A DNA stretch of 64,000 nucleotides from Paraspadella gotoi (taxonomy: Eukaryota; Animalia; Chaetognatha): NCBI GenBank assembly GCA_051294375.1, contig CM119263.1:24423447-24487446 (forward strand). Reading direction: 5' to 3'. The notes under the pieces are model-generated. The model was not told the origin of the DNA, did no database searches, and saw only the letters and a list, made by a program, of their open reading frames with translations. Position numbers and translations under genes: made by a program. Shown piece by piece: positions 1,432-63,955 of this stretch; the first letter of the stretch is position 1; every line of letters starts with the position of its first letter.

Positions 1432-1488
1432 ATCTTGTAAGAGAGAGTCCCTAATTCTCCATAGCCAGTCAAAAGTCTGTCCCAAGAT
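1432..1488 (+). repeat. Degenerate relic of the short twister-ribozyme repeat family
   Basis: ATCTTGTAA...TAA...CATAG-CCAG-TCAAAAGT-CTG..CAAGAT-AACTTATTTATT follows the layout and flanks of the copies at 26180 and 27646. P4 is swapped (CAG/CTG instead of CTG/CAG), but the GATGG/P1 part is deleted or mutated. Confidence 0.55.
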
Positions 1489-2212
1489 AACTTATTTATT
1501 AATTGGTTGAATCAATCCACCATATACGTCCGCACGTACGTTGATTCAGATTCACATTCGTACATAAAAGACAATGCAAATCATTGCTACAAAATCGTGA
1601 AAATAATTCAAAAATTGGCAGAATGTTTTTATCCTTTTAATTCGAACTTGTAAGGCTTAAAGGCGTTTTTTTTCTTCGGCTCCCGGAAGTAAGAGAGACT
1701 CAGCTTAAAAGAGAACGAAAAAGACGAAAGATGGCAGCATCATAATGGCTTTACTGGAGCCGGAGAGTCAATGCCCTTGTCTCAGACCGACTTATTCCAT
1801 TTGACAAAAATTGTCTCTGCGAGTTCGTGACAAAACAACCATATCGCCTCGTGTCAATAGTCATTACAATTTAAACAGAAAATGTGAGGAATGGATAATT
1901 TAGATATATTGTGGGATTCTCCGTAACTTTACATTAGTTTTTGGGAAAAATGTCCTACAGATTCGTCATCCATTATCATCGCCATCATAATCGCCTTAGA
2001 TCTTAACGTTGTCGTCGTTTTTGTCGTCGTCGTCGTCGTCGTCGTCATGGTTCTCGGCCTATCGTCGTGATGTTCGTAATCGTAGAAGTCTCAGTCAATT
2101 CTTGGCCGCCTCGCTATCCCTTTTTTTCGTTAATTCGTATTTTCTGTTTTTCCTTTATTTTTTTTCCCCCTTCGAACTATTCATGCTTAATCGTCTTTTC
2201 AACTACATTCCG

Positions 2213-23729: not shown

Positions 23730-26700
23730 TCACTCCGCCTTCTCTACTCTCTCCGTCTTTCGCAGCTCGGCGCAAACGACCGCGTGGCCCGCCTTCCAGT
23801 TGGCGCGTTGGCAGTCGGCAGAGCAGTACCACGCCCTCTTGCAACGCGAGCAGAAGGGGAATTTCTTGCCCTCGGGGGCGGCCTTGCGGCAGTGGAGACA
23901 CTCGTGCTCGCCGTCACCCTCAAACGAGCAGAGCGGGCATTTGCACTCGAAGGAGTAAGAGTGGAGCAACTGCGCCTGGCGATCGACGCGCGGTTGGCGA
24001 GGATCGATGTAAGAGATGAAACATTGCTCGTCCTTTTGAATCGGGCGGACGCTGTAGACGTGGACGCCGGGAAGACGGCGAATGAAGTCGCTCTTTACCT
24101 CGCAGTTGTGGAGGCAGCTGTGGTTAAGACAGGCGTGGAGAGGGAAGAGACCACCGAACATCGGTCGTCGAGGTTCTTCCTGTCAATGGGAAGGGAAGTT
24201 GAGTGGGAAAGAGAGAAGTGGTCGTCATTGAGATGAAATATAACAAAAAAAAATTTTGCAATCGGCAATTTCGAAGAGCTCTCGGGTCGTGAAAAAAAAA
24301 AACCGGTAGTCATCTCATGTTCAACAAAGGAAAGAAAAGGAACCTCTTAAAACCTTAAGCCCCTTGAAAGATAAGTCAAAACATTCTACCACCGTTTTAA
24401 TATTTGTCTATAAATTGTCTACAACGTAAAAATTTGTATTAGGAGAAGAAAACGTCTGAGCGTTGGAGGATTGAAAAAAAGATGGCAAAGCGGGAGAACA
24501 GCGTAGCAAAGCGATTTCCCAGCAGAGGCGCTCCGCCACAGTCGCACTGCACAGTGCACAGAAGCAAAACGTTTTCACCAAGCGCGGAATTCAACGAAAA
24601 TTCTCCCTCGTACATTATTTATGATTCCGCCCCGCCGGAAAAGGAAGACCGGAAAGCTTGGGAAGCGGAAAAGCCGGAAAGCAGGAAAAATCGGAAAGGC
24701 GGACGGGCGGAATGTCGTAAAACGTATGATGAATTCCCAGGAAAAAAACAAAAGGAATTAAGAGATAAAAAGCGGAACCGACTGGAGTCGGAGGAGCGGG
24801 AGATTTTGAATGACATCAGCGATGGAAAGAAGAAGACTCGAAACGATGATAAAAAAAAAGATTGAAAAGAGAGGGAGGAATAAAGAACTGGAATGGAAGA
24901 AGAAACGGGCTGTCATTCCGGAGAAGATTTTCTCGTGAATGGTGGAAAAAATATGAGGGGAATGTGAAAATGACAGATTTGATTCAAGGGCCGATGGGAA
25001 TGGAGAGAAGAAAGTGGGATCGGGTAATGGGTAAGTTGGTTGTGAGAGGAAAGGAGTAAAGAAGGAGAGAAAGGAGAAAAAGGGAAAGAAAACTCGAAAT
25101 AAAATAATCAAGATTCCTACTTGAAGATAGTCTTTGATTTCGTCGAGAACGCCTTCATAGGGAAACTCTTCGGCCAGGGTGTCGACGAAGATCTGATAGT
25201 TGGTCTTCGGAGGTCCGTAGAACTGCGCGTTATTGGCGAGTTGATAGTGGCGACCGTCGTACTCTCGTGCGTCGATGTCGTAGGGAACAGGGAGATTTTC
25301 GTTTCTGAAAAGCGACGGCAGAAAGCGATTAGAATGGCTGGATTTGGCCAACAAAAGGGCAAAGTCGTTTTCTTTCATTTTAAAAAGATTCTTATTTCTT
25401 AAGATGCTCGGATATTTAATCGTATCAGATTATGATATAGATGCATATCAACATATTGTGACGAATCCTAAATTCGCCTCCCGTATAGCTTGGTGAAACT
25501 CAGCTCGTCCCATTGGCTAAGGACAGCTAGGTACTCGTTCACCAACCGTGAGTTCCGTCTTCAATCCCCTCACGGTCACGCTGGTTAAAAGTGTGATGGT
25601 GTCGGCGTAAACACGCCAGTGACATGGGGTGGTCACTGCAGGTCCAAAGCCCTAAGCGCCAGTTATCGGGAGATGCCACAGACCCCGGGCATCACACATG
25701 TCTCCCCGTTTCCATAATATACATTATACAATTGAATAAATATTATGTTCAATATATGTCCTTTTAAAACCCGAAGGTTACCTGAAGATAACCTTGAGAT
25801 CGTCGAAGCAGGGTTTGACAGCTGGCGTTTGACTGTAGCCTTCCTTTCCGAAACCTATGAATCGGCGAAAAGGGTCTCGGGCTTTCTCCCAGTGAACCTC
25901 CGTCGCTTCTTCCGTTCCCTCCTCTTTCCACAGTTTATCCACCTGAAAGAGGCAAAATACTGAGTTTTTTTAAACTTCGGGAGAGCCAGAGCAATTTTAG
26001 AGTGTATAGAGAGACGGTTAGAAAAGTCACATGAGTCTTTCCATGAAATTGAAACATTCTTTGAAATATTATACCACTTCATTGATTGGGAAGCCAGCTA
26101 CTCTTGGAGTGAATAAACGAGACCGTGAGAGAGTCTTGATTGAAAGCTTAGTTATTATGTTATGTTATGTTAAGTTATTATCTTGTAAGAGTGATGGAGG
26201 TCATAAACCACCAAAGCCTGTCCAAAGTCAGGGGCAAGATAGCTTATTCATTAAATGAATGGACAATTTCATGACTATCCGAGTCGTGTCGTTAAATGGC
26301 ATGGCGCGACGGGGAATAGAAACAATAAACCTTGACGGGAGGTGCAGATGGGATTGATTTAATCCGTCCGGCAAATGACATCCGGGGATGAATTATCGTT
26401 GTCAAGGAAAATATGCTTCGTCGCGAAAGAAAAAAAATTTAAAATAAAAACCCACCACTTTCCCATGCCATTGCCCATGCCATTGCTTGTAAGGTGGAAA
26501 TTTAAATAAAACAATTAGCTACTTAATAAAGATATGAAATAAAAATTGTTTGAAAAGTTTTTAGTGATTCCGAATTTTAGAAACACTCACTTTCGCAACG
26601 ATTTTGGCCCATAGTTTGGCCAGCAGCAGATAGGACGGGATCGGTTTCGCGTTCCACCTTGAATAAGCTTCTTCGTCCTCCTTGGAACGGGCCAAGTATT

Positions 26701-28928
26701 CTTGCTTGTCTTCCAGGAATCGCCGATGTAGGCGTCCAGCGTCCGGATTAACGACCTGGCAGAGCACCTTGTGATAATCCTCCCAGGCGGCCAGGCGACA
26801 CTGCTCGGAGCAGTAGCATTCGTGACCGCATCGATCGCATAGCTCCTGCGCCTCGTTGGGCCAGTATTGCGTTACGATATCTTTGAGGTTTTCTGGATTT
26901 CGATTAGATAATTGAAAAGAAGCAAAATATCACTTCGCTTCAGTTTTATGACATAGTCCCCTAATTTGATCCGTCTACGTTTAAATTTTGTACCTGGCAT
27001 TTCTTTCCACTTTTCTTTAAAAACGTTCTCCGGCATGGAGGCGTCCATGCCGCAGTTGTAACACGCATAACACTCGATGGAAGTTTCTATCGTTTGAATA
27101 TGAATTGCAGCGAAGTCTCTCAGAACCACCTTTTTTTTAATTAAAGAGAGAGAGTGATTATAAATTATTAAAATCGAATTAATGCGGGGAAGGACGAAAA
27201 CGGAATGGGAAGCAGTCGGTTTGGCATCATTGGAAAACAAGTAAATATAAAATTTTGCAAAGCCAATGGCTACGAAGCTTACCGTTTATAAAAAAAAAAA
27301 CTGTTAAAAAAAATACGGGCCGGAGCGACAGAAGTGCCGAGGCACTAACCTCTCCTTCGGGGATGTAATCTCTGGCGTAAATCCCGCGAATCATTTCCGT
27401 TGTAAATCTTACTTCAACCTAGAAAATCGAAGAAAAAAAACCAAAGTTTTTTTTTTCATAGTTCCAACTGGTTGCTGATGGAAGGAAATATATTATATTT
27501 AGCCTTATCTAATTTCGTGAGAACCCAATTTTGGATAAGAATAGCTGGAAAATCCAATATATACGCAAAAATGACAAAAATAAAATAACGGAAATATTAA
27601 TAATAAGGATGATGACAATTAGGATCCTTGTATTTTGATGCTGTTGTCTTGTAAGTGTGATGGAGGCCTTAAACCACCATAGCCTGTGCAGTGTGCTAAG
27701 TCAGGGGCAAGATAGCTTATTTATTGAATGAATGAATAATTTTATATTTGTTGTACCAATTTCATTTATTAAATTGGTACAATTAAAAATTTCCCACGCA
27801 TTAAAAAATTAAGCTATCTTGCCCCAAGATTTGAACATGGTTTCTAATATGAAGAGAATTGATTTATCGCATCCGTTTTGATCCCTAGCCCAAAAAACCT
27901 GCAAATTGGTGCTCAACGGGTCGTAGTGTCTCTTTGTCCTCGTTTGCTGAAACAACAGTAGCGTTTCTTCATCATCTTCCTCCGCAGCTTTCGTCGCCGT
28001 CCGGAGCCAATGTTCGGCGGCAACGTAAAAACCCAAAGAGGCCAATATTTTTCCTATTATCAAAAAGCCAGGGTCTGAGTATTATCCAACGCTAGCAGGT
28101 GTCATGGTTTCATCAGGTAAAACGCGATCAGTGAAAGGATTCGAGGCACACCACACTTTTTCCTCCATCGCATCAAATAACCCAACTAGTATAACAACAA
28201 CAACCCTTTTATTCTTTTCTTTTTGAATTATGGGACCTAAACTTTCAAATCGCCAAACATGAACATATATCATAAATATTAAATAATTTGGATTAAGTAA
28301 GAAGTACAGATGACGTTCAATTCGTCAAAGCGACCAGTCAAATTTCCCCCGTGCGTTCCTACCTCCTAATTTTAACACTTCTGGAGTTCTCAGGCCCCTT
28401 TCGATGTTTGACAAAAAACGATACGCCTCTTTCAATTTTCCCAAATCGTACAGAACGGAGGCGTACTTGAACCAGTACTCGACTGTTTTTCTGTCCATTT
28501 GAATGGCCTTTAAATACCATTGGGATGCTTTGGTGATGTTGCCTAGGAAAGAAAATATGACGCGTTTTTCCTCTTAGAATATTTTTGTTTGGCACTGGGC
28601 CACGAAATGAGCTTCCACCTTGTTGAATGTACGAATCTCCCTTTTTGGCAATTTTTACTGCTTCTTGCGGATCGTTGAGTTTATCCGAGAGACACGGTTT
28701 TGACGTGAAGCCAATTTCGTCGAGACGGCGAGATTCGCTGGACCGAGAGAAAGCCGAAGTAGTTGATCAAGTAGGGTGATATTTATGACCATGAGATTTA
28801 AATTGAAAAACGTAAGATATGACGTTTTATTACCTCAAAAATAATTCTTTGTCACCGAAGTAAGGATTTTGGGGACACATACGAAGCGTTTCAAGTGCCG
28901 ACGGGGGATTAAACGGATCGCCCATCAT
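23730..28928 (-). CDS. SMYD-family lysine methyltransferase: N-terminal TPRs, split SET with MYND finger, post-SET, second C-terminal MYND finger
   Basis: Ten phase-consistent exons: 28928-28834, 28737-28619, 28542-28363, 28053-27899, 27418-27350, 27129-26994, 26892-26591, 25942-25782, 25304-25121, 24179-23730. Motifs: TPR GNITKASQWYLKAIQMDRKTVEYWFKYASVLYDLG; SET-N RGIYARDYIPEGE; MYND CYACYNC...CDRCGHECYCSEQCRLAAWEDYHKVLC; SET-C LNHSC..NC and ISYI; post-SET FECKCPLC; second MYND CLHC...CSRCKRAWYCSADCQRANWKAGHAVVC. Confidence 0.9.
25472..25710 (+). mobile_element. ~230-nt highly structured element (SINE/retrozyme-like) carrying a twister motif, in SMYD intron 8
   Basis: GC-rich island in an AT-rich intron. 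Visible helices: CTCCCGTATAGC/GTTATCGGGAG (closing), TTGGTGAA/TTCACCAA, CCGTGAG/CTCACGG and GATGCC/GGCATC, plus the twister fold. Confidence 0.55.
25580..25663 (+). ncRNA. Twister self-cleaving ribozyme, circularly permuted type P5
   Basis: P5 GCTGGT/GCCAGT; P2 GTGT(25591)/ACAC(25611); L1 GATGG and TAA (predicted U|A cleavage at 25608|25609); short P1 TGTCGGCG; GC(25615) pseudoknot with the loop GC; P3 CAGTGAC/GTCACTG; P4 AGG/CCT; L4 TCCAAAGC, whose CCA pairs with TGG of GATGG (a compensatory variant of canonical UCCCAAGC/GAGGG). Confidence 0.8.
26180..26240 (+). ncRNA. Short type P5 twister-ribozyme copy (slightly degenerate), SMYD intron 7
   Basis: ATCTTG-TAA-GAGT-GATGG-AGGTCA-TAA-ACC-AC-CAAAG-CCTG-TCCAAAGT-CAGG-GG-CAAGAT. 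P5, P4 and both pseudoknots (TGG/CCA, AC/GT) are intact; the P1 palindrome and P2 are partly mutated. Confidence 0.65.
27646..27713 (+). ncRNA. Short twister-family copy with disrupted L4 (probably inactive), SMYD intron 4
   Basis: GTCTTG-TAA-GTGT-GATGG-AGGCCT-TAA-ACC-AC-CATAG-CCTG-[TGCAGTGTGCTAAGT]-CAGG-GG-CAAGAT. The loop is 7 nt longer and lacks CCA. Confidence 0.6.
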
Positions 28929-29966
28929 TAATATTACCTTTAAAAACTTTCTCGCTAGCTTTGCGAAATATCTATGATATCCAGACACCGGTGAGCTTAA
29001 ACGCATCATGAATCTTCAGCAGCATCCTTCGTCGATCGAGCGTTGTTATGGTTACGGCAATACTTTAGAAACTCAAAATCAAATTTCTCTTTCCCGGATT
29101 ATTAGCTCGAGATCATTATGTATTCGTGTAATGCAATAAAAGACTAACTGACCTACAATTTGAATAACTTACGCCAAAACAATTTGTTAGAAGAACGATT
29201 GTGCGCGATTTATTTATTATAGCATTCATGCATAAATTCAGCAGTGGCATTACTAGATTCTCTAGTTCAATAATTCCTTTATCCTCTAATCATTAATTCT
29301 TGTGGCTCATCAAGCAAAATTGTAAAGAGCCATTAACAAAGCATTAAATTTCAAGCAACAAGTAGCTAGAAACTAGCAATTTCCACCCAGTTCGCTAAGA
29401 ACCATAGTTTGAAAAAAAGTAGCAATCAATCATACCAGCAGTAATACTGCCAGTATGACCAAATCAGATTATCTACCAATTTTCAAATTATGTCACGTTT
29501 ATGAATGAACTCTGGGCGATAACAAACAAATTCATTTAACAACAGTAACAATTCAATAAACTGGTAATGGCAACGCATTTGAGGGATGCTCCAAGGATGA
29601 CAAAATCATAGTTTTAACTAAGTCTATATGTAATTTGTAGGGATCAACACTCAAATTAAGCCTTGTTATGAGATCCGAATTTTAATTTTTTTCACAAGCG
29701 TTTTGTCAATAAAAAGGGTTAACAAACTTAACTGTAAATATTTTAGAATTTCTTCAAAAATCCGAAATTTCCGATTTAAACATTTTCGCTGAAAATATTC
29801 TCGTAGTGAGAGTATAGAAACGTCCGATCAGAGGTTTAGCCAACGAATGAGCCACAAGTTAATCCATATTTTGAAAAGACTATTCAAAGATACTTCATGG
29901 TAAGCAGAAATACTTTAAATATATTTGCTAGAAATATACTTGCTAAGAAAAAAAAAAACGGGTGAT

Positions 29967-31649
29967 TTAAGCGAGACGTTTTTCGTCCTTTTCGTCATTG
30001 TTGGACTTCGAGTCGTTTTCTTCAGGGTTGAGAGGAAGCGTTGCACAGAAAGGGATTTCCATATCATTCTCTGGTGCAACTCGATTGGGGACGACTTCTT
30101 CGGTGTATACGCTCGCAACCACTTGGGCGATTTCAGGCCAAGACACATTCTTGCAGTCATCTAGACAAGCGAAAAATCCGAAGGGACAAAGTTCATCAGA
30201 AATCAGAAAAATAAACACCGATAAGTAAACAAAAATCACCTGGTGCGTACGCATAGAACGTGTTCTTCGCCATTGTATATAAACGCCCGTTTTGTCTTAT
30301 GGTTTCTGGAATATAGTTGGACAGATCAGGAGAAATAGGAATCGTCAAAAATTCGGAGTTGCTCCGGATAGGTTGTTCTTCAGTAGATTCTTCAACTTGC
30401 TGTTCGCTGGAAATAAAATCATAAAATTTATAGCAATATACGCAGCCAACAAACCCGACGGGCGAAGATTTCAATTTCCCGCTTGTATTTCATTTTCCGC
30501 TAGACCTCTCCTTTTTAAAATTTCATAGCTCGGCTTACCATTTTTTTTCCACAGTACATGCCACAATAAAGAATATAAACAATCCTGTTTCCTGATTCAA
30601 CCTGTTCCTGTAACATAGTAAGTTACATACCAATCTTCGGGTTGGTTTTCCGATGTTGAAGCCACAGCAATAACATCCGAGTTAGACTCTTGCGACAAAG
30701 GGAGATGAAACAATAGTAAGCGTTTCTTTTTAAGTGTTGTAAAAAGCTTGAGGTATGATCGTTGAACAGGTTTATGGTGGCTTAATAAAACGTCGGCTTC
30801 TTCAACAGGGAACCATTTCCGTCTCCTTCCTGTAATGATAATACGTTGGTGAAAAATATAAGATTATTCTATTTGAAAAGCTAAAACAAAATCTTAAGAT
30901 TTTAATACGACGTTTAAGTGTGAAGGCATTCCTGAAGATTAATCCGTTCTTGAAGTCTATGGGAAAAGGAAGAGCAAGGTTTTTTTATAATAAATTAACG
31001 GAAAAACACTAACTTCGTTTTTCATCCTTTCTCTTCATTTTCCCATAGGCCTTTAGAAGGTATTAAATTTAAAATCCAGGATCGCCAAAGGGAGTTGTCA
31101 AATATACTAATACCGTTGCTATTTTATTTGAGAAAATGTTAATTCTATGCTTAAAAATATCTTAAAATATCTCGTACCAAGCATTCGAGATTCTTCCCAA
31201 TCCTCTGCGAGTTCTTCAACAATCAATTCAAACACTGCGGTTCTATGTTTTCGCTCGTTATTCTGAATAGACAAAGAATAATTCATGAACCCGTCACAAG
31301 ATCAATGAATCTGAGAATTAATTACCTGAAAAACGCCAAGAAATCTTATGATCTGGCCTTTTACTCCCGCTTCTTCCCAAACTTCTCGCGTTGCAGCGAC
31401 TCCAGGATCCTCCATGGGCTCGATGCCTCCACCGGGAATGACCCAGTGATTCGTAAATCGTGAACTTGAGATCAGAAGTATCTGAAAGTGAAAGAAAACA
31501 TTTTTAATATTTACAAGCTCTTATTTTCAAGGAGTCAATATCTCGGTTACCTCTTCTTCCGTCCTGTCTTTAAAACATATACAAGCGGCCCTTTGCCGAA
31601 ATCCATCCCCATCGTAAGTGCGAGCTTGGCCAATTTTTTCCTTCACCAT
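29967..31649 (-). CDS. NUDT3: Diphosphoinositol polyphosphate phosphohydrolase (DIPP; NUDT3/4/10/11, Aps-like Nudix hydrolase) with C-terminal extension
   Basis: Exons 31649-31551, 31481-31326, 31262-31178, 30829-30631, 30406-30240 and 30160-29967 join in frame: MVKEKIGQARTYDGDGFRQRAACICF...HWVIPGGGIEPMEDPGVAATREVWEEAGV (Nudix box)...ERKHRT...GRRRKWF...HKPVQRSYL. The symbol denotes the family; the paralog cannot be assigned. Confidence 0.9.
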
Positions 31650-32421
31650 CTTAGTCCATGTTGTGACTTTTATCGAGGATAAAGAACTGAGAAATAAAAA
31701 AGTGCAAGAAAACGCATTGGAGAAATATTACCGAGCGACGCAGATCATCCCAGCCACCGAGAAACAAACTATGATTTCGAAATTGTTAAAATCCAGAAAT
31801 GATTTCGAGCGAAGCCAAATGTTGCCCGCTTACCTAATTAATCGAGAGGGAATTTCTTTTTTCCCTCTTGGGTGCGGATCGGCAGAAACCCTTCAATCCG
31901 CGACCATCTCCACTCTTTGACGACGTTGGTCCGAGAAAGCAATCAAATTTCCCGAGAGGCACTTTTAAATCACGTTAATTTTGTTTTCGCCACAAACCGC
32001 ATATTTTCAGTCGGATCGAGCTTCGAATCTTCGATGGGCCCGAGCCATTTCACTCTCGCTTGCAGTCGCACTCGCTCTCTCTCCCACTCTCGCTCTCAAT
32101 CGCGCTTGAGAATCAAAAAGCCGAAGAAAAATATTTCGAATATCTCTCTCTCTCTCTCTCTCTTGAGTTGATTTTCTACCAATGGCCCGCTTTCGGTCGG
32201 CGCCTAATGACCTTCGGGCGGACACTGACCCCTTGGAAGGGCTGGCGACGCCTGACGTCGGGCGCGAGCGGGACGGATCCTCGGGAAGGGCTAGACTGCA
32301 TGGCGGATCATCGACGTAATATGGCCGATATGGGAAGGCATTGGAGTCCAAAGGTTTCGACAAGGTCGATATCGTCCGAAGGAAAAAGAAGGATAAAAAT
32401 AAACTCTCCCACACATACGGG

Positions 32422-32460
<39 letters not shown>

Positions 32461-33161
32461 AAGAGAGAGACGTTGTTTACACCGAGTTGGTCTCTTCCCC
32501 TCGTGTTTTCCCGTTCCTCTTCGTTCCTCGTCGTGCCTGGCCGTGCCCGATCTGCTCCATCGGGGCCGTGCCTCGCCTCAGTCTCGCCTCCGCTTCGCTA
32601 CTCTTCTCCAATGGCCATTCCGCTCCTCTCGCTCCCCTCGGCCAGCTGAGTCACGCTCCTCTTCGCCACGTCGCTACCCCTGCCGATGCTGAGAGAAACA
32701 TCCTGGTTCCTGGAGGCAGAATCCAGATTAAAATAGAAAAACCTGTTGTCCTTCGTTCCTTCTTTTTATCGTTCGTCCGTTCGTCCATTTGTTTGTTCGT
32801 TCATTCGTTCGTCTCCCTGATTGTTCTCCTGCTGATTAAATCACTTATTTCTTCGTGAATAAAGGTTCGAATGACTCAATTTAATCTCGATGAGCTGGCA
32901 ACGGTTGATCTGGGGATGGGCCGCCTATGTTTCTTCATGATCTTTTCTGAGGGAGTAAATTATTTCGTAAAGGAAATATTATACGTTCATGTGGGTGCCG
33001 AATAAATTAAAATTCCCAACTTTACTTTGTTTGATAAATCATTAATTTTTATCAATAATCGTTTATATAAGTTGCTGAAAGACTCATGTACTATACGTTG
33101 AACCGGACGGACAGTCATTCCAGAAAGTTGGAAAATTGTTTCAATAATTAAACCACTAAAG

Positions 33162-37746
<4,585 letters not shown>

Positions 37747-38070
37747 AATGTAACGTTTATGTTCATGTCGATGGTGAGTGTTTTTCCGCTTTACTACTAC
37801 TAAAGTGCTATAACTACATAACTACATACCTAATAGCAATCGCCTTTTAGAACAATGCCTCGATCAACCATCTTGGCTCAATGAGCCTTTTCATGAGCTC
37901 ATTAATATAAACCAAAACTGCAAATTTGCATCTCAACTTAGATAATATTAGAACAACATATTATGCGTATTTGCTTGCTAATTGTGTGGTATGCTTCTCA
38001 TCGCTTTAAGAGGGAACGTTATGGACGTAGGTATTTGAAGTGGAATGGGGAATGGGAATACTAACATATA

Positions 38071-38788
38071 CAGAAGGCTTCATATTATAAAATGTGGTAC
38101 CCCTTTTTTGTGACCAGAATCTGTTCCCACCAAACTACCCGATCAAATTTAATGAAATTTTACATTTAGAGTGCTAATGACTATATAAATGGAACTATCA
38201 AGTCTAATTTTGATATTCAACCCCTGACCAGAGATACGGGGCCCTGGGGGTGGACCCCTGGGGGGGCAAAAAATGCTAAATTTTTTTTTTCATTTTTTAA
38301 GTAGCATCAGGTGCATTGACGTTTTAAACATAAGAAAAAAACATTTTAGAACTAAAATTGATAAATTTGCAATAATTAAGCATGGTTGAAGAAGCATGGT
38401 TCATCGTTTTACTTCCAATTTTTCCAAATTATTCCAAATCTGACTTTAACTGCTGATGTTCATGAAGCTAAAAATTAAAGTAAATGAATATTTTTGAGGT
38501 AATAAATACGTTTTTGTAGAAGAATAAACGTCTGTGCAACTGTTCAAAACAAAAATAATAAAAAAAATTGAAACAAATTTTGACCATTTTTTGTCCCCAT
38601 GGGTGACCCCCCGGGGGGCCCATATCTCGGCTCAGTGGTCAAATATTGAAATTCGCCTCGATAGTTTTATTAGTATTCACATAGGGATCGTTCATTCCAA
38701 ATTTCAATAAATTTGGTCCAGTAGTTTTCTCGGAACGAGTTCTGATCACAAAAAAGGGGTACCACATTTTATAATATGAAGCCTTCTG
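38071..38788. mobile_element. Tc1/mariner-type MITE with TA target-site duplication downstream of the RSK stop
   Basis: TA|CAGAAGGCTTCATATTATAAAATGTGGTACCCCTTTTTTGTGA ... TCACAAAAAAGGGGTACCACATTTTATAATATGAAGCCTTCTG|TA. Perfect >40-bp TIRs, and looser symmetry continues ~200 bp inward. Confidence 0.9.
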
Positions 38789-40351
38789 TAGTTGATTAAA
38801 TACGAATTTTTTAACTATCTATTGGTGTTAAACCATTTTAGAAATATGTAGTAATTTTTTTAATTATATGCAGTCCATAAGTCAACTGCAATACCATCCT
38901 TATAGAAACATTTGACTGAGAACTATACCATCCATTATGCCCTCTATACAGGCAAAATATCGATTGGCTGATCACTGACAGGCATTAATAATTATATAGA
39001 AGTTATAGTAATATTATTTGAATAAAATACTGCTGTTGCTTTCGATGATAAGTATGAAGGTGCAAAAGCTTCCCATAATATTGTCACCGCAGTCAAGAGC
39101 AGTTAGAAAGCCATAAAAAGTCATTTAATGATTTTTACATAATTTTTATTTCATTGTGTATTTTTTGTGAATCATATTTTTAATATATCTTAAGTCCACA
39201 TTATAAAATGTACATTTCTTCTTGTTAAAGATCATGTTTTTATTTTTACACAATGTGTTTAAACGTGTTTACCCAAGTTTGAAGGGAGAAAAATTGTTGC
39301 GCTATCACCTTTGCTAAAATGTTTCATCCTTGATAGCCCTCTCAAATCTATAGAAAACTTTAAAAAATAGCCATAGTATCTCAGATCGATGAATTATATT
39401 TCTACTGTGATCTTACTTATACTGTAAACAGTGGGTTTTCTTGTAAAAAGAACGATTTTGAACATAGATATTTGTGTCTCAACATTAATTATCAGATCAA
39501 TGTAACTATTCGTTCATTTGATAACTTGGGCAAATATCACTCTTAATGGAATACCTTCTATGTTTCTTTTGTTGCTTTGTAATATCTTTTCTCTTAAATG
39601 TTCCTTAATTCTCGTTATGTATTCGGTAGGTTCACCGAATTTTTGTTTGTGATATTGTAAATATAAAATTTACGCTGAGGTACTATTTCAAACGGTAGTG
39701 AACTTTCGTTTCAGATTAGCATTCGTTTTTTCTTCTAGTCTCGATTTAAAATTCATGAGAAAATATGTTAGCATTAATATTATAAATATATTGGGGTTGA
39801 AAGGCTGTTTTCAACTGTGATTATTGCACGTATTTCTAGTCTTAATAAAATGCCTTTTTTTACTGAGAATCATGTCTAAAGATCAAATTAATGATTAATG
39901 TTTAATCTTTGAATAATCTTTATCACCCCAACTGTTTCTCAAATGTTAGCATTTTCCGATGTTCCGAAACTTTTAAAATCTTTATACGGTTCATTTATTA
40001 AAGTTTATGTATATAATCAGTTTATTTCTTTCCTGTTTGAGTGAGTGATACTGCTAGATATTAAAACCGGTTGAATTTAATTACGAATTGAAGCTAGGCC
40101 AAGGATAAAATTTCAAAGGGTATACCAATCCTCGCATCAGCTGTCGGGCGAGCCTCCGCACATACCGCACGAATCCCGAATTTTGCTGTGCACGAATCTA
40201 ACCCAAGCTTCGATGCAAAACAACCAATCAGCGACTTGTAACGAACGGAACAGCGTTGAAATTTATATTACAATTGTTATTCTTTGAAGTGTATTCTGTA
40301 AACATTACCCCTAGATAATGAACGCTCTTTGGCTCACTCAAATTGCTAACG

Positions 40352-42121
40352 ATGGACACTGGCCTCTACACGATTGCGGGTGCGGGATCTGCCGTATCGC
40401 GATTAAAAAAATAGAAAAAATTGGGATGTAGAACAAAGAATCAAAATATTTGTACGCATTTTCTAATATTTTCATCACTAAAATGGAATTAATTTCGTCA
40501 GTAGCCTTTGCTAATCTCACCGTTCCCGTTCCATATTCTGCCTCGAACCAAACTGCTTACAATACTACATTCTCTCAAAATGAGGTATAACTTTGCTATA
40601 AATTTGAAAAAATTGTTAAAATGACTACAAAGGATATTTTATAAGTACTTAAAAGTTAATAGTAATTATTAGTTAAATAATCTAGTGTAGAAGACGAAAA
40701 TAGTAAGTCGCCTCACTAGGTCTTTTTCTTATGTTCAAATTGTCATTTCATTAAACGAATTTTAATAAAATATATTCTCATCTTCAACGTATAGTATTCG
40801 TGTTAGTATAGTGATTCATAAATCGTACGTATATCGTTATCAGACGCCGCCGTGGGTACGACAGCCCCACAGAGGCAGATATGGATACGATCCGACTTGG
40901 TTCCAAAAACGCCAATTCGTGTACAAAAGCCAAATGCAAAGCCGCCTTCCGTACATCGTGGTGACTTTGGCTGTCATCAAAGTCATGTGCTTTATTTACT
41001 TGGGGAAGGTCAACTATTCGAATAGGTACGAGCTCTATAGGAGTATGTTTTTCGAGAATAAAATAACTATTTTGGTTTCTACAAGATGTTTGTAGAAGTT
41101 TGTATGTACGAAGTTATTAACCGTATAGTAAAAGCTAATCTTACGTATATCGCCAGACCCTTGGACGTCGACGTGTCGTGGCTGAGAAATCTAAACAGAC
41201 GCGCCATGTTTTGGCGTTATCAAGAGGAACGGGACCGATTTCGTCCCCTTGCCGCCGCCGCAGCCTCGTCGAGGAGAAACTCCCGCCCTCTCTCTGGCGG
41301 ACCGCGAAGGAGAGAGGGCTGTCTAACGGAAGTAAGAACGCCGCCGCAAGACGACGGTAACTCGGCGGGAACAGCCGCTTCCGAGGGGCGCGTTGGCTGC
41401 CGACCTCGAACCACTTCCGCCGACGACTCTGCCATCGAATCGGCTCAGGATCGGCGGAGACGGCGGCGTCGGGAGCGGCGACGCCGGCATACTTCGCTAA
41501 CCGATTGTCCTCGTTCGTCGTCTTCGCCACGTGGGCGACGTGTGGATCGAGATTCACGCGATCTGCCTTCATACAGTGAGGCCGTATTAGTGCTGGGATG
41601 CAAGACTGAGACGTCGTGGGAGGGGCTCCCGCCGCCGCCGCCTTATCAGGAAGCTGTTCGAGTCGCCGACGCCGCCGCAGGAGAAAATGGGGAGAGGAAT
41701 AGGTCAGCGGATTTTAAAATAATTAAAAAATATACGTATATCAATTTTCCAATTATTCATAGTAGATTTGGAGAATTGTAAAATCAACTTAGCCAAACAT
41801 AAAAGTAATTATCAACGTAATCTTAACATTATAATTATTCCTTATTTTACTTGACAAATTCCATTTAGATGCCAATCCGTGACTTACCCGGCTTCCCGCC
41901 TCTCACCATCACCTTCTCCTCCTTTGCACTCTCCGCCGCCTCATTCTCCCACTTCGCCACTCCCATTCGCTGAATCGCCCGCGACAGCCGAACATCCCCC
42001 GCCATCCTATGCAGCCGACAACGACGAGCTCGACGACACTATGAACACCGTCGTCGTCGTCGTTACTCCACAGCTTCCAACTTACGAAGAAGCGACAGCT
42101 CCCAACCACATAGAGATTTGA
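40352..42121 (+). CDS. Single-pass membrane protein with multiple PY (PPxY/LPxY) motifs; putative NEDD4-family ligase adaptor
   Basis: Exons 40352-40379, 40502(or 40505)-40584, 40844-41025, 41157-41702 and 41869-42121 join in frame. N-terminal sequons NLT/NQT/NTT; hydrophobic LPYIVVTLAVIKVMCFIYLG; cytoplasmic LPSY, PPPY, PPSY and LPTY. The first exon is least certain. Confidence 0.7.
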
Positions 42122-42820
42122 CGAGCTCGCTTCATTTGACAAATCAATTTTTTTGAACGAATTTTTTCAATTTTTTTGTAACGCGTTCTTAAGTGTCATG
42201 TAGCAACTATATACTATGTAACAACTACTACGAATCCACAGATTATAAGGCGGAGGATAATTTAAAAAAAAAATTTATAGTAACCAATAGTTCGTTAGTC
42301 CTGTATGATCACCTTTTCCTCCTTTCTCAAGTCATAATTGGTATTCAAAATGAAATTGATCACCAATCAAGTTTCTAGTCATTGGTGTCTTTTTCAGTAA
42401 TCACGAAACGTACAAGCGGTGCTAATCGCACACCAATTCAATGTGCAAAGTCGGCGTATTTGCTTTATTTCAAAAGCAAAGTTTTTCTTACATTATCTCG
42501 ATTCTTGTTACGTACAGCTTGCCGCTTTTTTTAACTATTTATTTACTTAGAGAAAAGACTTGCTACAGCATAACAATTGTCGTGTTTCTGCATTGTTATT
42601 TTTAATACAATTGGATTTCGGAAATCGCGTATTTTGTATTTAAAAAGAGAGACTAGGAAAAAACTAGTACTACTATTATTTAAAATTCAGCTTGTAATCC
42701 TTAACTCGCTTTTATCCTCCCGGCATAAAAGGGACAAAAAACCCTTCTTTAATTTCGTTCTTTATCACTTTCTTGACTTAATTACTAAGGTTTTAAGTAT
42801 TTTTTTTTCCTATATATAAA

Positions 42821-44437
42821 ATGTCGGCCGCTGACGATTTCCAATTAATTAAGGAAGAATTGGAAAGCATCGCATCTGGTAATTCATTTCTACTTGTAAA
42901 CAATGGATAAATTTTGTCCAACACTTTTTGATGAAATCAGTTTACTTCATTATCTCACAGGATTGCGACGTCTATTGAACAGCACTACCTCCCTGAACGG
43001 AACGGTTTCTCAATTATCCGTGGTCGACGCATCCGTGGGCAAAGTGAAAGTCGCGACCGCGAGAGCGGATCAGTCTGACACCGGCGACTGCAGCGACGGC
43101 GGCGGCAGCAGCTGCAGCGTCGTAAGTAGTGGCAATTGCTGCGGCGGTCGTGGGGAACGTGACGAGGAAAACGTCGAGGGACTTGGCAACGAGGAGTCTT
43201 CTTCTATCGATGAAGATAAAAAAGATGTTGCCGTCGACGAGAGCGCATCCGTCGACGGCGCAAAAGCTGAGGCTCCATTGAAAGAAGAAACGGAACAAAT
43301 GGAAAAAGGCTCGGATGAAGAAATCAAGGTGGTAGAGAAAAGTCCCGAAGAAGCCCTGTTCGAAGTCACGATGAATGAGGCGTCCGCTGCGGAAAACTCC
43401 GTCGTCTGGGAGAAGGAAGAGGAACGAAGACCAGAATTGAAAGAGGCAAAGGATGACGATTCGAATGGAGTTGATGAGTTGAATGAATCAGATGAGGTAA
43501 ATGGCAACGAAGTAGATGAGATTTTCCCAGGTGAGTTTGGCGACGAAATTGATGATTTGCAAGAGAAAGAAACTATCGATGAGGGCGTCGATCAGGCTGA
43601 AAGCGGTGCCGGTTCAGGCGACCAAGCTGTCGCAGGGGACAATGTAGCATGCGAAAACAGCGGGGAGACCTCCGTGCAGACGGCCGTACCAGATCGTGGG
43701 GACGGTCATGACGAGACTAAAGATGAGATAGAAGAAAGTGATGAGGAAGAAAAAGTCGAAGAACACGGGAATGGAGATGAAGTGAGTCGGATAGTACACG
43801 ACGTACAAGAAAATAATGTTCATGCCGATAACCTGATAGAGAATGGGAATATTGAGATCTGTTCTCATGAAAGTGGACATGGGAATATTGAAATCTGTTC
43901 TCAAGAAACAGAGAATGAGAATATTATACTTGACGAAGAAGAACTTGAGGAATTCATCCCAAACGTCGACCATTTCCATGAAGATGACGACGGCGAAGTT
44001 TTTCAACCAGAAAAGTTTTCAAGAAATGAAAAAAGAGGAGAAAAAGCGAATGCGGCGCAGTTAATCGACAGCACCGTTATCTCGGTATCCTACTTGCTCT
44101 TGGCGATTTACTTTCTTTACTTCTTGTACTACTTACTATTCGGATGGAGCGACTCTGTGACGAGGACTCCACCACATTTTGAAGCGGCAATGGAGGTGTG
44201 TAAATTGAATATTTGAAAGTAGGCATTTTATGCGATTTATTTAACGGTTTAACTCAGGTCTAAAAAAAAAGAGTTCAGTTTATAGCTTGATATTTTAAAA
44301 AAATATATGGGAGTACTACTTAAAATATAGATCATTAATTTAATATGAAATTGATGTATTATTTTCAGGAGTGGTGGAAGCAAGTTTATGATGATGATTC
44401 CGAAGACGATACTGGTCACCTTTTGAAATATTTTTGA
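42821..44437 (+). CDS. Highly acidic disordered protein with a near-C-terminal transmembrane segment
   Basis: Exons 42821-42878, 42961-44195 and 44369-44437 join in frame. Glu/Asp-rich body, internal duplication GNIEICSHE/GNIEICSQE, hydrophobic VISVSYLLLAIYFLYFLYYLLFGW; AATAAA at ~44551. Confidence 0.75.
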
Positions 44438-44766
44438 GCGCTCTTTTGTTTTTCGATTGCGGGTCCCACGAGCAGGAGTGCTATCTAGAGTTTTTGTGAC
44501 AAAACGTAATGGACAAAATGCCATACTTTTATTTTGCGATGCGATTTATAAATAAAGTTATATGTACGTATTATAGTTGGAAAACATTTTTCAATCTTTT
44601 AAATGTACGTGTTTGGTTTTTATTAAGATACAACTTATTACAATTTTTTCTAATCAGAAATAAAAAAAAACATTTAGAAATAATTCTTAATAACCATACG
44701 ATACTTTCCTCACTCCCTATGTGAGCCATTTCCCTTTTCTCATTTAAACTTCTAAATTTTCACTCT

Positions 44767-44850
<84 letters not shown>

Positions 44851-46033
44851 CCCACATCCCCCCACCCTGGTTTTGAAACGCGTTTGCCATCAATTCCCAT
44901 CATGACGCCGGCGCCCGGTTGGTGCTTCGCGTTGACGTCTTCGTTATGTATCTCGATTTAGACGAATAAACGACGGGGACCCGGAAGCTCATCTGTTTCA
45001 CTTTAAGGAGGGACCTCACTTTGTCTTACGCCGAAACGCCAGAGCTCCGTCTTCTTCTCCGCTTTTCTTTTCTTTTCTTTTCTTTTCTTTTTTTTTCTGC
45101 TCTTCCTTTTAAGGCTTTAGTTTAAAATCTTCTTTGGGTTCTCTCCTTCTTTTTTTTTTTTTTGCAAGGGGATTGGCTTTTTTGTAATTTTTTTTTCTTT
45201 GCCAGTTTTTGTTTTAGCGTCGCTATAAGTTGAGCAATCAATCAATCAATCTTTTTACGCATGGTACTCTTTTCTTTCATTCCTTCCTTCACATATCTTT
45301 CTTCTTTCTTTTATTTTGGCTCTCTGCTCATATTGTGCGTCTCTTCTTTCCGATGGAAATTCATTAAGACCCGAGCGTCGAATATAAAAATCATCGTCGT
45401 CGTCATCGTCGTCGACTCTCATCGGTTGATCAGTCAAGCAACGGATTGTCCGGATGATTCTCCCGGCGCCGGAATTCTTCCACCGCGCGCCGGGAGCCGC
45501 GTCGTCGGGAACTGCGCGTCGGCCATCCGTCCGGTCTTCTCGGTCAAATTTGGTCCAGCGGGATTCGGCGCCGAAACCCGACGACAGCCCCCGACCGACG
45601 CCGTCCGTCGAACTCTCTGGCAGAGGGCGCCAACGCATCGCCGGGGTTGGTCGACGGGGCCGTAACGGGTAACACGGACGCCAAGCTGGATCGGTGACGC
45701 CGAATTGACGGAATCTGGCGACGCGATGCCGTCAAATTTTTTCGGTCGTCGGAGCGAAACGGGAAAAGCGACGACGAGGATGACAAATATGACGATTGCG
45801 GTTCAGCTTCATATGATAGAAGTTAATTAAAACTAAAAATCTAATAGTTTAATATTAATAAAAGTGTTCACTCTAGCGGTTTTTGTTATCGATGGATGGT
45901 CAACGATTGCTTTAGTTTGGAACTAAGCTTTTAATCCACTTTCTCCGCTCTCCTTTATCTGTCCTCATCTTCTCCCCTACCAAAATCCCTTCCCGCACTT
46001 TACGGGTGAACAATTGTCGCGAAGTCGCCTCAT

Positions 46034-46067
<34 letters not shown>

Positions 46068-47560
46068 CCGACCTCCCGGAGTCCTCGCTCCAGTCGTCGG
46101 ACCGGAACCGAGTCTTGTCGTCACCCGAACTCATCGATCTCTAATCCAGGAGACCAGAAATCGTGACTGTGTCGACGACGATGACAAAGACGACGATGAC
46201 AACGAAAGCGACTGATGACGGTGACGTTGATGGCCGAGTACTTTTCTCATGTTGATGAACGTGAAGTGGATGCGACGGACGACGACGAAGATAAAGACGT
46301 TAATGACGACGACGACGACGACGATCGATTTCGAATGCAGAAGGGATCGGAAGCGGCCATTAGTCGGTAAGGAAGGAGCCGCCGCCGCCGCCGCCGCCGC
46401 CGCCAAACGACGCATAATTGAGACGCTCGCGATCGGACGTTGACTCCGGACGTGGCTGTCGCCTTCATTTGTCGTCGTCGTTATCGTCGTCGTCGATTTC
46501 TTTTGGTCAGATTTTTATTGACTCCCCGATCCGTCGCCTTTGACGAGCGTTTGATTCCATTTGCGTGGAGAGTGGAGAGAGGGGGGGAGGTGTGGGGCGC
46601 GAATTGGTGACGAAGGGTTATTGCAAGCAAATCCGATGAAAGGAAAATTGGAGAAAGTTATGACATCATTAATTTCGATTACGGACGGATGGCAGTTCGT
46701 CGGCGGCGGCGGAGGAGGTGGCGGCGGCGGTGACGAATTCGCCAATCGAATATTGAAGCCGCGTTAATCATTGATTCGACGAAAAGAAAATTTGAGAAGA
46801 GCGTCCGTTGTCGTTAACTTTGTTCGAAACAGTGTTGCATTGTTCGAAACAGTATTGTAATTGTATTGTGTTGCTTCTTATCGTTTTGGCTCCCAATTGA
46901 GAATTAGGAGATAGATTAAATTACTAATGAAAAACCTTCGTTGATGAAAATGTCGACGAACGTTTTTGTCATCATTTTTTTTGTTTATTCGAAACAAAAA
47001 TCATATGCAATATTGAAACTAAAGTCGGAAAAGTTAAGTATTCCTAATTTGATTATACCTCGAGCCTTAGAAATATAAAATATTTGTTTCGCTAAACTAC
47101 TAAACATAACAAACGAGCTTTTCAACCCTCTTTGCGGCCAAGGGGTCATGACGCAAGACGGACGACGATCGGACTCAATATGAATGGAAGCGTCGTAAGT
47201 TGGCCAATGAAAAATGCAAATGACAAATGCGGATGATGACGATGACTGCGACCTTTTCGATCGGAAGAGACATCAAACATTCACGAGGTTTTTCTCTTGC
47301 GAGGACGTTGCGGCTCTTGGTCATTTGATCAAGCGGGTGGAGAGTGAAAGCCGTTCGATGATTTTGCTGGAAATCTGTTCGTTTTGAGAGAATGTTTAAG
47401 TTTATCGATTCTGTGAATTAGGTTTTTAAACTCAGCTGTTCTGAAAAAAAAAAAGACAGAAAGAAAGAACAGACTGAAAGGAAATGTGAAAGTAAGAAGG
47501 AAAGATAGAAAGAAAGACATAATGATTAGAAAAACAGAAAAAAAGGTAGGAAGAAATAAA

Positions 47561-47620
47561 CAAGACCCTGACTTTGGACAGGCTTTGGTGTGTTTAAGGC
47601 CTCCATCACTCTTTCAAGAT
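47561..47620 (-). ncRNA. Short type P5 twister-ribozyme copy with intact core and palindromic P1
   Basis: Reverse complement: ATCTTG-AAA-GAGT-GATGG-AGGCCT-TAA-ACAC-AC-CAAAG-CCTG-TCCAAAGT-CAGG. P2 has one mismatch; the 3' strand of P5 is lost. Confidence 0.7.
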
Positions 47621-48295
47621 AATGAAATTTCAGATCTCTGCAAGTTTCAATCGAGACTCTCTCTCAGTCTCGTTCATTCACTCCAGAGTACCTGGTTTTC
47701 CCTATCAATGAGTGGCATAATATTTAGATATTAGCCCAGTTATGAGCATTTTAAAACGTAAGTGGGCAGACAACGTACCGACCGACCGACTAACCAAAAT
47801 TAACTTAATAAATTGCTTTACGAATACTACTAACGGCGCAACTGTAAAGAAAGCAAGAAAGAAATAAAGAAAGAGAAAGAAAAGGAAAAGAAAAGAAGAT
47901 AAGAAATAAATAGGTTTCATAACTCTCTCCGCCGAGACGGAAAACTCAATCAGGTTTCACTTTCACCGTCGGGCAACTCAAGTAGGACGATTTCATCATT
48001 TTCAATTCCGCGCATCGTTTATGGGTCAAAACCGCGACGCGGCGCCATTTTGGTTTATGGCGTTTCGCGACGCGCGACGCGAGATGGCGCTTAGTCTCTT
48101 TCAGCTTTGTCAGAGACATGGCGGGTGGTGGTGGGGTCGAAGGGATATTTCTATCTAGGTGTGGGATGAAGTGTTAAACCGAGCACATACATGTCATAAA
48201 TGCTTTTTCTTATGATTACTATTTTAATTATATATTATTGTTAAAATATTTGATTAAAAGGTTAACAGGAATTTATGGTTCCAAGTGGAACCGGG

Positions 48296-56054: not shown

Positions 56055-56638
56055 AGGGCGTTTGAGAGCAAAGGGCGATTAAGAGCAGAGGGCGATTGAG
56101 AGCAGAGGGGCGATTGAGAGCAAAGGGGCGATTGAGAGAAAAGGGCGCGATTGAGAGCAAAGGGGCGATTGAGAGCAAAGAGGCGATTGAGAGCAAAAGA
56201 GGCGATTGAGAGCAAAAGGGCGATTGAGAGCAAAGGGGCAGAGAGAAAAGGCGATTGAGTAGAAAGGGGTGATGGATAGCAGAGGGGATTGAGAGCAAAT
56301 GGGCGATTGAGAGAAAGGGACCGATTAAGAGCTGAGGGGCGATTGAGGGCAAAGGGGCGATTGAGAGCAACGGGCGATTGAGGCAAAGGGACGTTGAGAG
56401 CAAAGGGGCGATGAAGAGCAGAGGGGTGGTTGAGAGCAAAGGGGTAAATTAAGAGCAAATGGGCGATTGAGAGCAAAGGGCCGAGTAAGAGCAGAGGTGA
56501 TTGAGAGCAAAGGGGGATTGATACAAGGTGAGGAGAGCAGAGGGCGATTGAGAGCAAAGCGGCGATTGAGAGCAAAAGGGGCGATAAGAGCAGAGGTGCG
56601 ATTTGAGAGCAAAGGGGCGATTGAGAGCAAAGGAGCGC
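56055..56638. repeat. Degenerate ~18-bp minisatellite (GATTGAGAGCAAAGGGGC, ~30 units)
   Basis: Direct reading. It produces the repetitive LLSIAP/ALNRPF/CSQSPL ORFs on the minus strand. Confidence 0.92.
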
Positions 56639-61533: not shown

Positions 61534-61694
61534 GCTTTTGCTGTAGTTTTAAGAAAAATGTAAAAAAAAGAAAAAAAAACTAACATAAAAAATGGCAAAA
61601 AGAAAAAAGAAGAATACAAATGCCATAAGTAAGGAGAAAGAGGGAAAGAAAATTGGAAAAGAAGAAATATGAGAGAGAGAGAGAGATAGGGAGA

Positions 61695-61741
<47 letters not shown>

Positions 61742-63761: not shown

Positions 63762-63812
<51 letters not shown>

Positions 63813-63955
63813 TCTTCATATTTCTTCTTTTCCAATTTTTCTTTCCCTCTTTCTCCTTACTTATGGCATTTGTATTCTTCTTTTTTCTTTTTGCCATTTT
63901 TTATGTTAGTTTTTTTTTCTTTTTTTTACATTTTTCTTTAAACTACAGCAAAACG

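Follow-up and report, generated by a model that had tools for sequence, protein, structure and literature searches.

We analysed a window of 64,000 nucleotides (nt) from the chaetognath Paraspadella gotoi (GenBank assembly GCA_051294375.1, contig CM119263.1, positions 24,423,447 to 24,487,446 of the forward strand; coordinates below are those of the window), in which a first-pass annotation made from the sequence alone had pointed to a dispersed family of small twister-like motifs. The motif is the core of an abundant repeat that resembles a short interspersed nuclear element (SINE), and this core is probably a variant of the twister ribozyme class that lacks helix P1, has compensated A-U and U-A pairs in both pseudoknots and lies in the interior of the repeat. 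The reading that we favour, and regard as about evenly poised on the sequence comparisons, is that of a SINE-like repeat with an internal, circularly permuted P5-type twister, in which a 6-nt linker stands for P1 and which would likely cleave in cis as a monomer. Its parts differ in strength: a twister ancestry of the core is highly probable, and self-cleavage of the family-majority core stands at about even odds. Three copies (c1, c2 and c3), a fragment (c4), a relic and a diverged relative at 25580 carry the comparison (Table 1).

The 61-nt core of c1 fits the layout of a circularly permuted, P5-type twister, with the UAA of the cut site, GAUGG, the L4 loop GUCCAAAGUC, a P4 of 3 bp and a closing P5 of 7 bp. 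All pairs of P5 (7/7), P4 (3/3), pseudoknot 1 (2/2, AC/GU: A26210-T26228 and C26211-G26227) and pseudoknot 2 (3/3, UGG/CCA: T26195-A26224, G26196-C26223 and G26197-C26222) are of the Watson-Crick type, and the A.A position is kept as well; two of the four pairs of P2 are present and P3 is absent. In place of a P1 helix, there are 6 nt between GAUGG and UAA in the family and 8 nt in the diverged relative, too few in either for a P1 hairpin. The pair table was built by coordinates and not from the MAFFT alignment, because MAFFT placed the core of the relative out of register and a second alignment split the strands of P4 and P5 across columns. The general acid of twisters is described as the A after the cut, followed by A2, and the general base as the first G of GAxGG (PMC11662667); all of these are present in c1, where the first G of GATGG occupies the place of the general base. 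The position of the predicted cut in c1 is taken over from the twister class as described in PMC8501958. None of the catalytic and pseudoknot positions is damaged in c1, c3 or the majority sequence of the family. Two other layouts were rejected. A hammerhead, whether in the 5' region or in the three-way fold, would need the core motifs CUGAUGA and GAAA, neither of which was seen by eye; and if ATCTTG/CAAGAT is taken as P1 and the first TAA as the cut, as in a type-P1 twister, no 3' strand remains for P2 and no GAxGG after P4.

The UAA and GAUGG elements are present in c1, c2, c3 and the relative, and the 10-nt loop over P4 (GUCCCAAGCC) reads GUCCAAAGUC in c1 and c3 and GUCCAAAGCC in the relative. 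The segment of P4 and L4 of c1 has an exact second copy in c3, which keeps both pairs of pseudoknot 1, all three of pseudoknot 2, the A.A position, all three of P4 and three of the four of P2. In c2, pseudoknot 1 is complete, pseudoknot 2 has two of its three pairs, the loop is disrupted and P2 has again two of four. The relative, of which the window holds one copy 600 nt upstream of c1, has a P5 of different sequence (5/5), complete pseudoknots (2/2 and 3/3) and a complete P2 (4/4), an 8-nt linker TGTCGGCG that is not palindromic and replaces P1, and a predicted cut at 25608/25609. As had been noted on the first pass, its pseudoknot 1 is GC/GC, set against AC/GU in the family, its P4 differs and still pairs (2/3), and it has a P3 (6/6), which lies at the place where twisters carry this helix. 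Its flanks are weakly like those of the family (p of about 0.01 on the 5' side and about 0.045 on the 3' side, by shuffling), and relative and family are probably, judging from these likenesses, an old and a young lineage of one element type.

Compared with the Rfam Twister-P5 consensus (GAGgG, GC, cCG-GUCcCAAGCC-CGg), the family has exchanged both partners in three pairs and kept them paired: G-C to U-A in pseudoknot 2, G-C to A-U in pseudoknot 1 and G-C to U-A in P4. Between the two lineages and against the Rfam consensus, compensated differences are found in pseudoknot 1, pseudoknot 2, P4 and P5. The twister-class layout proposed in the first-pass annotation is upheld in that both pseudoknots are kept through changes on both sides.

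The element is larger than the approximately 60 nt first ascribed to it, since the core lies within a repeat that measures about 270 nt or more, as seen from the extents of self-BLAST matches and from the family contigs. By self-BLAST, c1 and c3 are similar over 170 nt (26064-26233, 79% over 172), reaching 115 nt upstream of the core, and c1 and c2 over 95 nt (to 26272), reaching 32 nt downstream of it. Contigs of three runs labelled DNA were placed on c1 at a likeness of at least 80% (7852, 9068 and 2598 contigs). Their summed depth in the best bin was 3.47 million, 5.79 million and 0.83 million, with a single-copy flank of 98, 211 and 17.5, a ratio of about 27,000-47,000 single-copy equivalents by our own rough division, of which only the order of magnitude is used because summed depth is not copy number. 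A second placement of contigs, over the c2 region, agrees with this picture of high abundance. In metagenomes, the pattern of the family core was found at 0 loci; a looser pattern, drawn to fit both lineages, matched at 2 loci, one without the register of P4 and pseudoknots and one coding-like, and both were taken as chance.

On the 5' side, the family contigs start at 26043-26047 on c1 and extend upstream of 26047, where only a 30-letter consensus of loose ends was obtained and the head of the element lies beyond the reach of the contigs; a motif search in the 64-kb window did not find this upstream loose-end motif. On the 3' side, the family ends in ...TTGGTTGTACCAATTTCAT (that is, ...CCAATTTCAT), which in c2 is located at 27765. 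Beyond this point the loose ends are A/T-rich, with an agreement of only 0.40-0.44, and the depth falls to single copy. The ATTT/AATG-like tails with which the forward copies had been said to end are conserved internal sequence of the repeat; the true 3' end comes about 50 nt later, and behind it the sequence is A/T-rich and agrees poorly. The 5' ends vary among copies (26047 in c1, 27646 in c2 and 47729 in c3), and traits of SINEs are present in the high copy number, the dispersal, the common 3' end with an A/T-rich flank and the variable 5' truncation. An abundant, dispersed, retroposon-like family, as originally proposed, is thus borne out by thousands of contigs, 5' truncations, the A/T-rich 3' flank and the lack of a reverse transcriptase (RT) domain in the scanned translations. 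No RT or endonuclease domain that would indicate an autonomous partner was found in 110 open reading frame (ORF) translations of the window (10 of at least 150 aa, and 100 from 164 of at least 80 aa with an entropy of at least 3.6, the remaining 64 being excluded by hand as overlapping frames or previously scanned), and inspection by eye of the surroundings of c1 and c2 showed no clear target-site duplications. Because of the variable 5' ends, the common 3' end with its A/T-rich flank and a tail-to-tail insertion (see below), retroposition driven by a long interspersed nuclear element (LINE) appears likely.

Tandem arrays, also brought up on the first pass, find no support in the family: head-to-tail joints occur only in a few contigs with a depth of about 60-780, compared to more than 1e6 for the core, and c1 and c2 are separated by 1466 nt of unrelated DNA and not arranged in tandem like retrozymes. 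In at least 8 contigs of the X1 set, the 3' end of a copy is followed by 9-10 letters ending in CAGC and then by sequence like that from 27625 onward (27625-27646); these joints are a rare head-to-tail or composite subfamily.

Within the family, variation in the core is scarce. At two positions, 26201 (T>C) and 26203 (A>T), about 97-99% of the depth differs from c1, and the family-majority linker is therefore AGGCCT, in agreement with the linker given originally and with c2 and c3. We take ACC-AC as the family majority because no insertion of at least 5% was found there in thousands of contigs; with ACC-AC rather than ACAC-AC, P2 is left at 2 bp. For the 3' strand of P2 (GAGT or GTGT), neither contig placement listed a variant of at least 5%, and the sole other core variant at that level is G>A at 26234 / 27707, a position of the unpaired GG that links P4 to P5. 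It accounts for about 7-24% of the depth in the runs labelled DNA and for about 2-3% in X9, a set labelled RNA by guess only and made of contigs of repeated parts, which has no bearing on transcription or RNA ends.

Each of the four places named in the first-pass annotation was examined and holds the sequence described there, and a profile search found five fragments of the family in the window. The motif GATGGAGGCCTTAAAC has three matches at up to 3 mismatches, compared to 0.33 expected, and 0 of 100 shuffles reach three. The full consensus given originally is matched by none of the copies in the window: c1 has AGGTCA in place of AGGCCT, c2 carries CATAG and an L4 loop longer by 7 bases, and in c3 the first TAA is replaced by AAA and the 3' CAAGAT strand is gone; ACAC-AC is restricted to c3, with ACC-AC in c1 and c2. 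Over a stretch private to c1 (26150-26176), the X1 depth drops from about 1 million to about 1000-2000; the family carries GCAGGGACCTGCTATGTCATT there, and the consensus of the loose ends behind 26149 is GCAGGGACCTGCTATGTCATTATCTTGTAA. At the point where c1 no longer fits on its 3' side, the family continues with TTATATTGGTTGTACCAATTTCAT. The 3' region of c2 reaches the family end, and the depth is single-copy from 27779. The relic does exist, with a longer span than the 1432-1488 assigned to it at first (profile search, Table 1); this copy and c2, with its disrupted loop, look dead.

The fifth fragment, c4, is inverted and lies tail to tail with c2 (end of c2 at 27765 on the forward strand, end of c4 at 27768 on the reverse strand), as if one copy had inserted into the A/T-rich tail of the other. 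Its depth is near single-copy, and it is therefore placed outside the young family. The inverted repeat GGCAAGATAGCTTA / TAAGCTATCTTGCC after c2 is there because c2 and c4 adjoin tail to tail; a reading of it as an RNA switch was ruled out by this old second copy.

Table 1. Coordinates of the repeat copies, of the parts of c1 and of the diverged relative in the 64-kb window (RNA motifs are written as DNA; WC, Watson-Crick).
Feature	Position	Strand	Remarks
Relic copy	1356..1516	+	GATGG partly deleted, second TAA changed, L4 changed
Diverged relative, fuller layout	25580..25663	+	P5 GCTGG/CCAGT, GTGT, GATGG, linker TGTCGGCG, TAA, ACAC, GC, P3 of 6 bp, P4, L4 GTCCAAAGCC
c1, 5' region of repeat	26047..26149	+	common with c3; no ribozyme-like motif recognised
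c1, private stretch	26150..26176	+	(TTATG)n-like; family majority different here
c1, P5 5' strand (T)ATCTTG	26179..26185	+	7/7 WC with 26235-26241; in minimum free energy fold
c1, junction TAA, then P2 3' strand GAGT	26186..26192	+	only T26192-A26207 and G26191-C26208 pair; next two positions mismatched
c1, L1 3' strand GATGG	26193..26197	+	aligned to GAGgG of Rfam Twister-P5; TGG is pseudoknot 2
c1, linker in place of P1 hairpin	26198..26203	+	AGGTCA; AGGCCT in family majority, c2 and c3
c1, L1 5' strand TAA	26204..26206	+	aligned to UAA of Twister-P5; predicted cut T26204/A26205
c1, P2 5' strand ACC, pseudoknot 1 strand AC, linker CAAAG, no P3	26207..26216	+	aligned to UGCgGC.Aaga of Twister-P5
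c1, P4 (CCT/AGG) and L4 loop GTCCAAAGTC	26217..26232	+	P4 3/3 WC; aligned to cCGGUCcCAAGCCCGg
c1, GG linker and P5 3' strand CAAGAT(A)	26233..26241	+	pair table by coordinates
c1, 3' region of repeat	26242..26272	+	internal deletion relative to c2 and family; c1-c2 similarity ends at 26272
c2, 5'-truncated copy	27646..27765	+	core 27646-27713, AGGCCT 27664-27669, private T27680, L4 disrupted by 7 extra bases
c4, old diverged 3' fragment	27768..27840	-	nhmmer 27787-27840, E = 0.002; motif match 27768-27786
c3, 5' region and core	47550..47729, core 47620-47561	-	AGGCCT, ACAC, P2 3/4, P5 3' strand lost, first TAA is AAA

On the favoured reading, the repeat's transcript would likely cleave itself at the second UAA, between its U and its A (26204/26205 in c1), acting in cis and as a monomer. 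The core would descend from a real twister, its cleavage would not need P1, and the element would be spread by LINE machinery acting on uncut RNA; most economically, the ribozyme would be a module carried along from an older ribozyme-bearing element. Published work speaks for activity of such a core: P1, which is phylogenetically conserved, is described as dispensable, a P1-less twister cleaving at an almost wild-type rate (PMC5408937), and in a survey of about 2600 natural twisters, defects in P1 and P2 and the length of P2 are described as having little effect on cleavage (PMC11662667).

Several observations weigh against this reading. P2 has only 2 bp (2/4) in c1 and c2, compared to 3-4 bp in usual twisters. 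The minimum free energy fold of the c1 core (-16.7 kcal/mol) pairs UGGAGG with CCACCA and puts the cut site into a hairpin loop, and the nested part of the twister fold has -3.3 kcal/mol, a value for the nested pairs only, as the program leaves pseudoknots and tertiary contacts unscored. Fewer than 30 of the 3728 X1 contigs have loose ends at the cut site (the smallest cluster shown has 30), and among the X1 clusters shown there is none at 27670/27671; copies that start at the cut site are rare, and the usual template is therefore uncut RNA. The anatomy of the element implies no function for the predicted cleavage: as the motif is permuted and internal, a cut would detach the 3' portion of about 115 nt, which carries the end used for reverse transcription, from the two thirds of the repeat on its 5' side. 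No Rfam family matched the window at gathering scores, a scan of the whole window by E-value gave no twister or other ribozyme match, and the c3 region searched alone gave no twister match. Furthermore, there is no informative covariation inside the young family (the single core variant of at least 5% lies in the unpaired linker), and the evidence for the fold therefore comes from the two lineages only.

Much of this would be explained if the motif were a fossil, that is, if the amplified family had lost P3 and most of P2 and folded into a three-way structure of P5, a hairpin and P4, the majority being inactive and the motif a passenger of the repeat; we consider this possible, if somewhat doubtful. 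The relative suggests an ancestor with a working twister, its P2 being complete where c1 and c2 have two of four pairs; the competing fold, the score under the Rfam cut-off and the rarity of copies starting at the cut site point the same way, and self-cleavage in the middle of the element would be expected to destroy the SINE template. Against a fossil stand the intact catalytic and pseudoknot positions of c1, c3 and the family majority, the high-throughput data described in PMC11662667, in which P1 and P2 defects and P2 length matter little, and the share of pseudoknots and tertiary contacts that the nested energy omits.

A chance resemblance, in which a hairpin-rich part of a SINE-like repeat without twister ancestry merely looks like the ribozyme, is unlikely. 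It would be in line with the absence of a match at gathering score, c1 reaching 21.5 bits against Rfam Twister-P5 (RF02684; E-value mode, 5 kb), below the cut-off of 37.6, and 25604-25660 reaching 18.1 bits against Rfam twister-P1, with a cut-off of 67.2. The alignment of c1 to Twister-P5 has E = 0.32 for 5 kb and 4227 families (about 1e-3 for this one family over the whole window, by our own arithmetic) and counts in favour of the twister layout. A large genome gives chance matches at 21.5 bits, tens of thousands of copies expose any such match, and the minimum free energy fold of the core differs from the twister fold. The Rfam model leaves the pseudoknots, P5 and the UAA before P2 unscored, however, and two diverged loci have the same full layout including these very parts, with P3 at the correct place in the relative. 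A revised descriptor of the layout matched at 3 loci of the window and nowhere in 400 random windows that shared its first-order composition (a first, stricter version found c3 only, with 2 matches in 300 random windows); the descriptors were written post hoc and therefore show only that the combination is no effect of composition.

The first-pass annotation had gone further in proposing that the ribozyme needs a dimer. In this model, the twister would cleave only when two transcripts pair via AGGCCU, forming two P1 helices of 3 bp in a domain-swapped dimer, which we regard as improbable. AGGCCU is indeed the family majority and too short for a hairpin, its self-duplex of 6 bp has a predicted energy of -9.1 kcal/mol, and the predicted gain of the homodimer over two monomers is 10.7 kcal/mol in c2 and c3 and 5.2 kcal/mol in c1, which lacks the palindrome; dimeric hammerheads are moreover described as established (PMC7761336; PMC4209133). 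The case for a dimer comes down to one 6-nt palindrome, and dependence on it finds no support because the 8-nt linker of the relative (TGTCGGCG) is not palindromic and P1 is dispensable in published work on twisters, as described in PMC5408937 and PMC11662667. Any hexamer is a palindrome with a chance of 1/64, conservation in a young family is identity by descent and not selection, and tandem copies are rare. In addition, if the 3' strand of P1 came to stand directly before its 5' strand, the joint would be palindromic by construction, so that no selection for dimers would be needed; the palindrome may record the origin of the permuted form and have no role. A permuted P1-less twister spread by a SINE, in which AGGCCU lets two transcripts swap halves and cleavage is gated by RNA concentration or tandem insertion, is very improbable; if real, it would be without precedent both as a dimer-dependent twister and as a ribozyme-cored SINE of its class.

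Among known systems, the nearest family is the P5-type twister, and the nearest biology is that of RTE-borne twisters. With the former (RF02684, clan CL00120), the repeat shares the order of P2 3' strand, GAxGG, P1 region, UAA, P2 5' strand and 2-nt pseudoknot strand, followed by an A-rich linker and P4 with L4, all closed by an outer stem; its L4 equals the Type-P5 consensus at 8 of 10 positions, the two differences being compensated in the pseudoknot partners. It differs in lacking the P1 hairpin (6-nt linker), in a P2 of 2 bp, in its score (21.5 bits against the cut-off of 37.6), in U-A, A-U and U-A for G-C in pseudoknot 2, pseudoknot 1 and P4, and in the animal-like character of the repeat that carries its motif. 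Most P5-type twisters come from bacteria or from environmental sequences. The P1-deleted mini-twister (Kosutic et al. 2015), which cleaves at an almost wild-type rate according to PMC5408937, is likewise a twister core without P1; as that source describes it, it is an engineered two-strand construct with an open end, whereas the family is natural sequence, its L1 strands are joined by a loop of 6-8 nt and its cleavage is predicted.

In Schistosoma mansoni, a T-variant type-P1 twister at the 5' end of Perere-3 (RTE) is reported to trim the upstream transcript and to stay with the element (PMC8501958), and 'truncated' twisters are reported at the 5' ends of RTE elements at large (PMC7761336). 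The likeness, from what these sources describe, is that a twister occurs in hundreds to thousands of copies of elements without long terminal repeats (non-LTR) and that a weak or absent P1 is tolerated. Those twisters are described as type P1, positioned at the extreme 5' end and kept whole, with P1 supplied by the target-site duplication; the motif here, in contrast, is permuted and lies in the interior, with repeat sequence extending 130 nt or more upstream of it, its cut would halve the element, and no RT lies nearby. Ribozyme-bearing SINE-like elements and metazoan non-LTR retrozymes carry type I hammerheads as described in PMC7229834 and PMC7761336. Like these, the family is a short, non-coding, non-autonomous repeat with a small self-cleaving motif, here a predicted twister and not a hammerhead. 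The Sm-alpha SINE of schistosomes is one such ribozyme-bearing SINE-like element. Retrozymes are tandem and give circular RNAs, whereas the family is dispersed, 5'-truncated and A/T-tailed, with rare head-to-tail joints. The minimal hammerheads of Penelope-like elements, which are said to act as dimers (reportedly Lunse et al. 2017), offer a last comparison. Their action as dimers is also described in PMC4209133, and they are alike in having a helix too short to close alone with a palindrome at its place. Hammerheads need helix III for activity, whereas twisters do not need P1 (PMC11662667; PMC5408937), and tandem pairs are not seen in the family. The literature search found neither a twister inside a SINE nor a natural permuted P1-less twister, the candidate lists of PMC11662667 lying outside the search, so that a prior listing is possible. 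No paper with the sequence strings of the family was found in that search.

To our knowledge, twisters are common in animal genomes, and their only worked-out role is the 5' processing of RTE-type retrotransposons. A permuted P1-less twister in the middle of a SINE-like repeat that numbers tens of thousands of copies would place the class in another setting. If it is active, a cut would halve the element as well as any host transcript that carries the core in sense, which raises the questions of whether the motif serves the element, limits it, or shapes host mRNAs and the orientation bias in introns; if it is dead, it would amount to an ordinary fossil within a repeat. The case also illustrates how routine annotation with Rfam overlooks variants of this kind, whose score is lowered by the compensated pseudoknots and by the lack of P1.

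The relative, c1 and c2 lie in antisense in introns of a SMYD4-like gene, a number too small for a test of orientation bias. This gene is recognised on the reverse strand by exon-like ORFs at 23733-24182, 26564-26929 and 28328-28573 (with SET plus MYND, MYND, and TPR, respectively). A Ser/Thr protein kinase domain extends over two exon-like ORFs of the forward strand (33488-34129 and 36958-37746; Pkinase E = 5.5e-45 and 2.3e-52). Towards the end of the window, 61536-63953 forms a large, nearly perfect palindrome (arms of 59-125 nt with 90-100% complementarity, in register over about 2.4 kb), which may be a fold-back artefact of the assembly or a real inverted duplication; a run of N (62669-62693) lies near its centre. 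Runs of (CT)n are numerous in the window, which is eukaryote-like in character, an array of about 30 copies of an 18-19-nt unit (CGATTGAGAGCAAAGGGG-like) occupies 56056-56650, and an exact direct duplication of 236 nt is found at 54326-54561 and 55123-55358, 797 nt apart.

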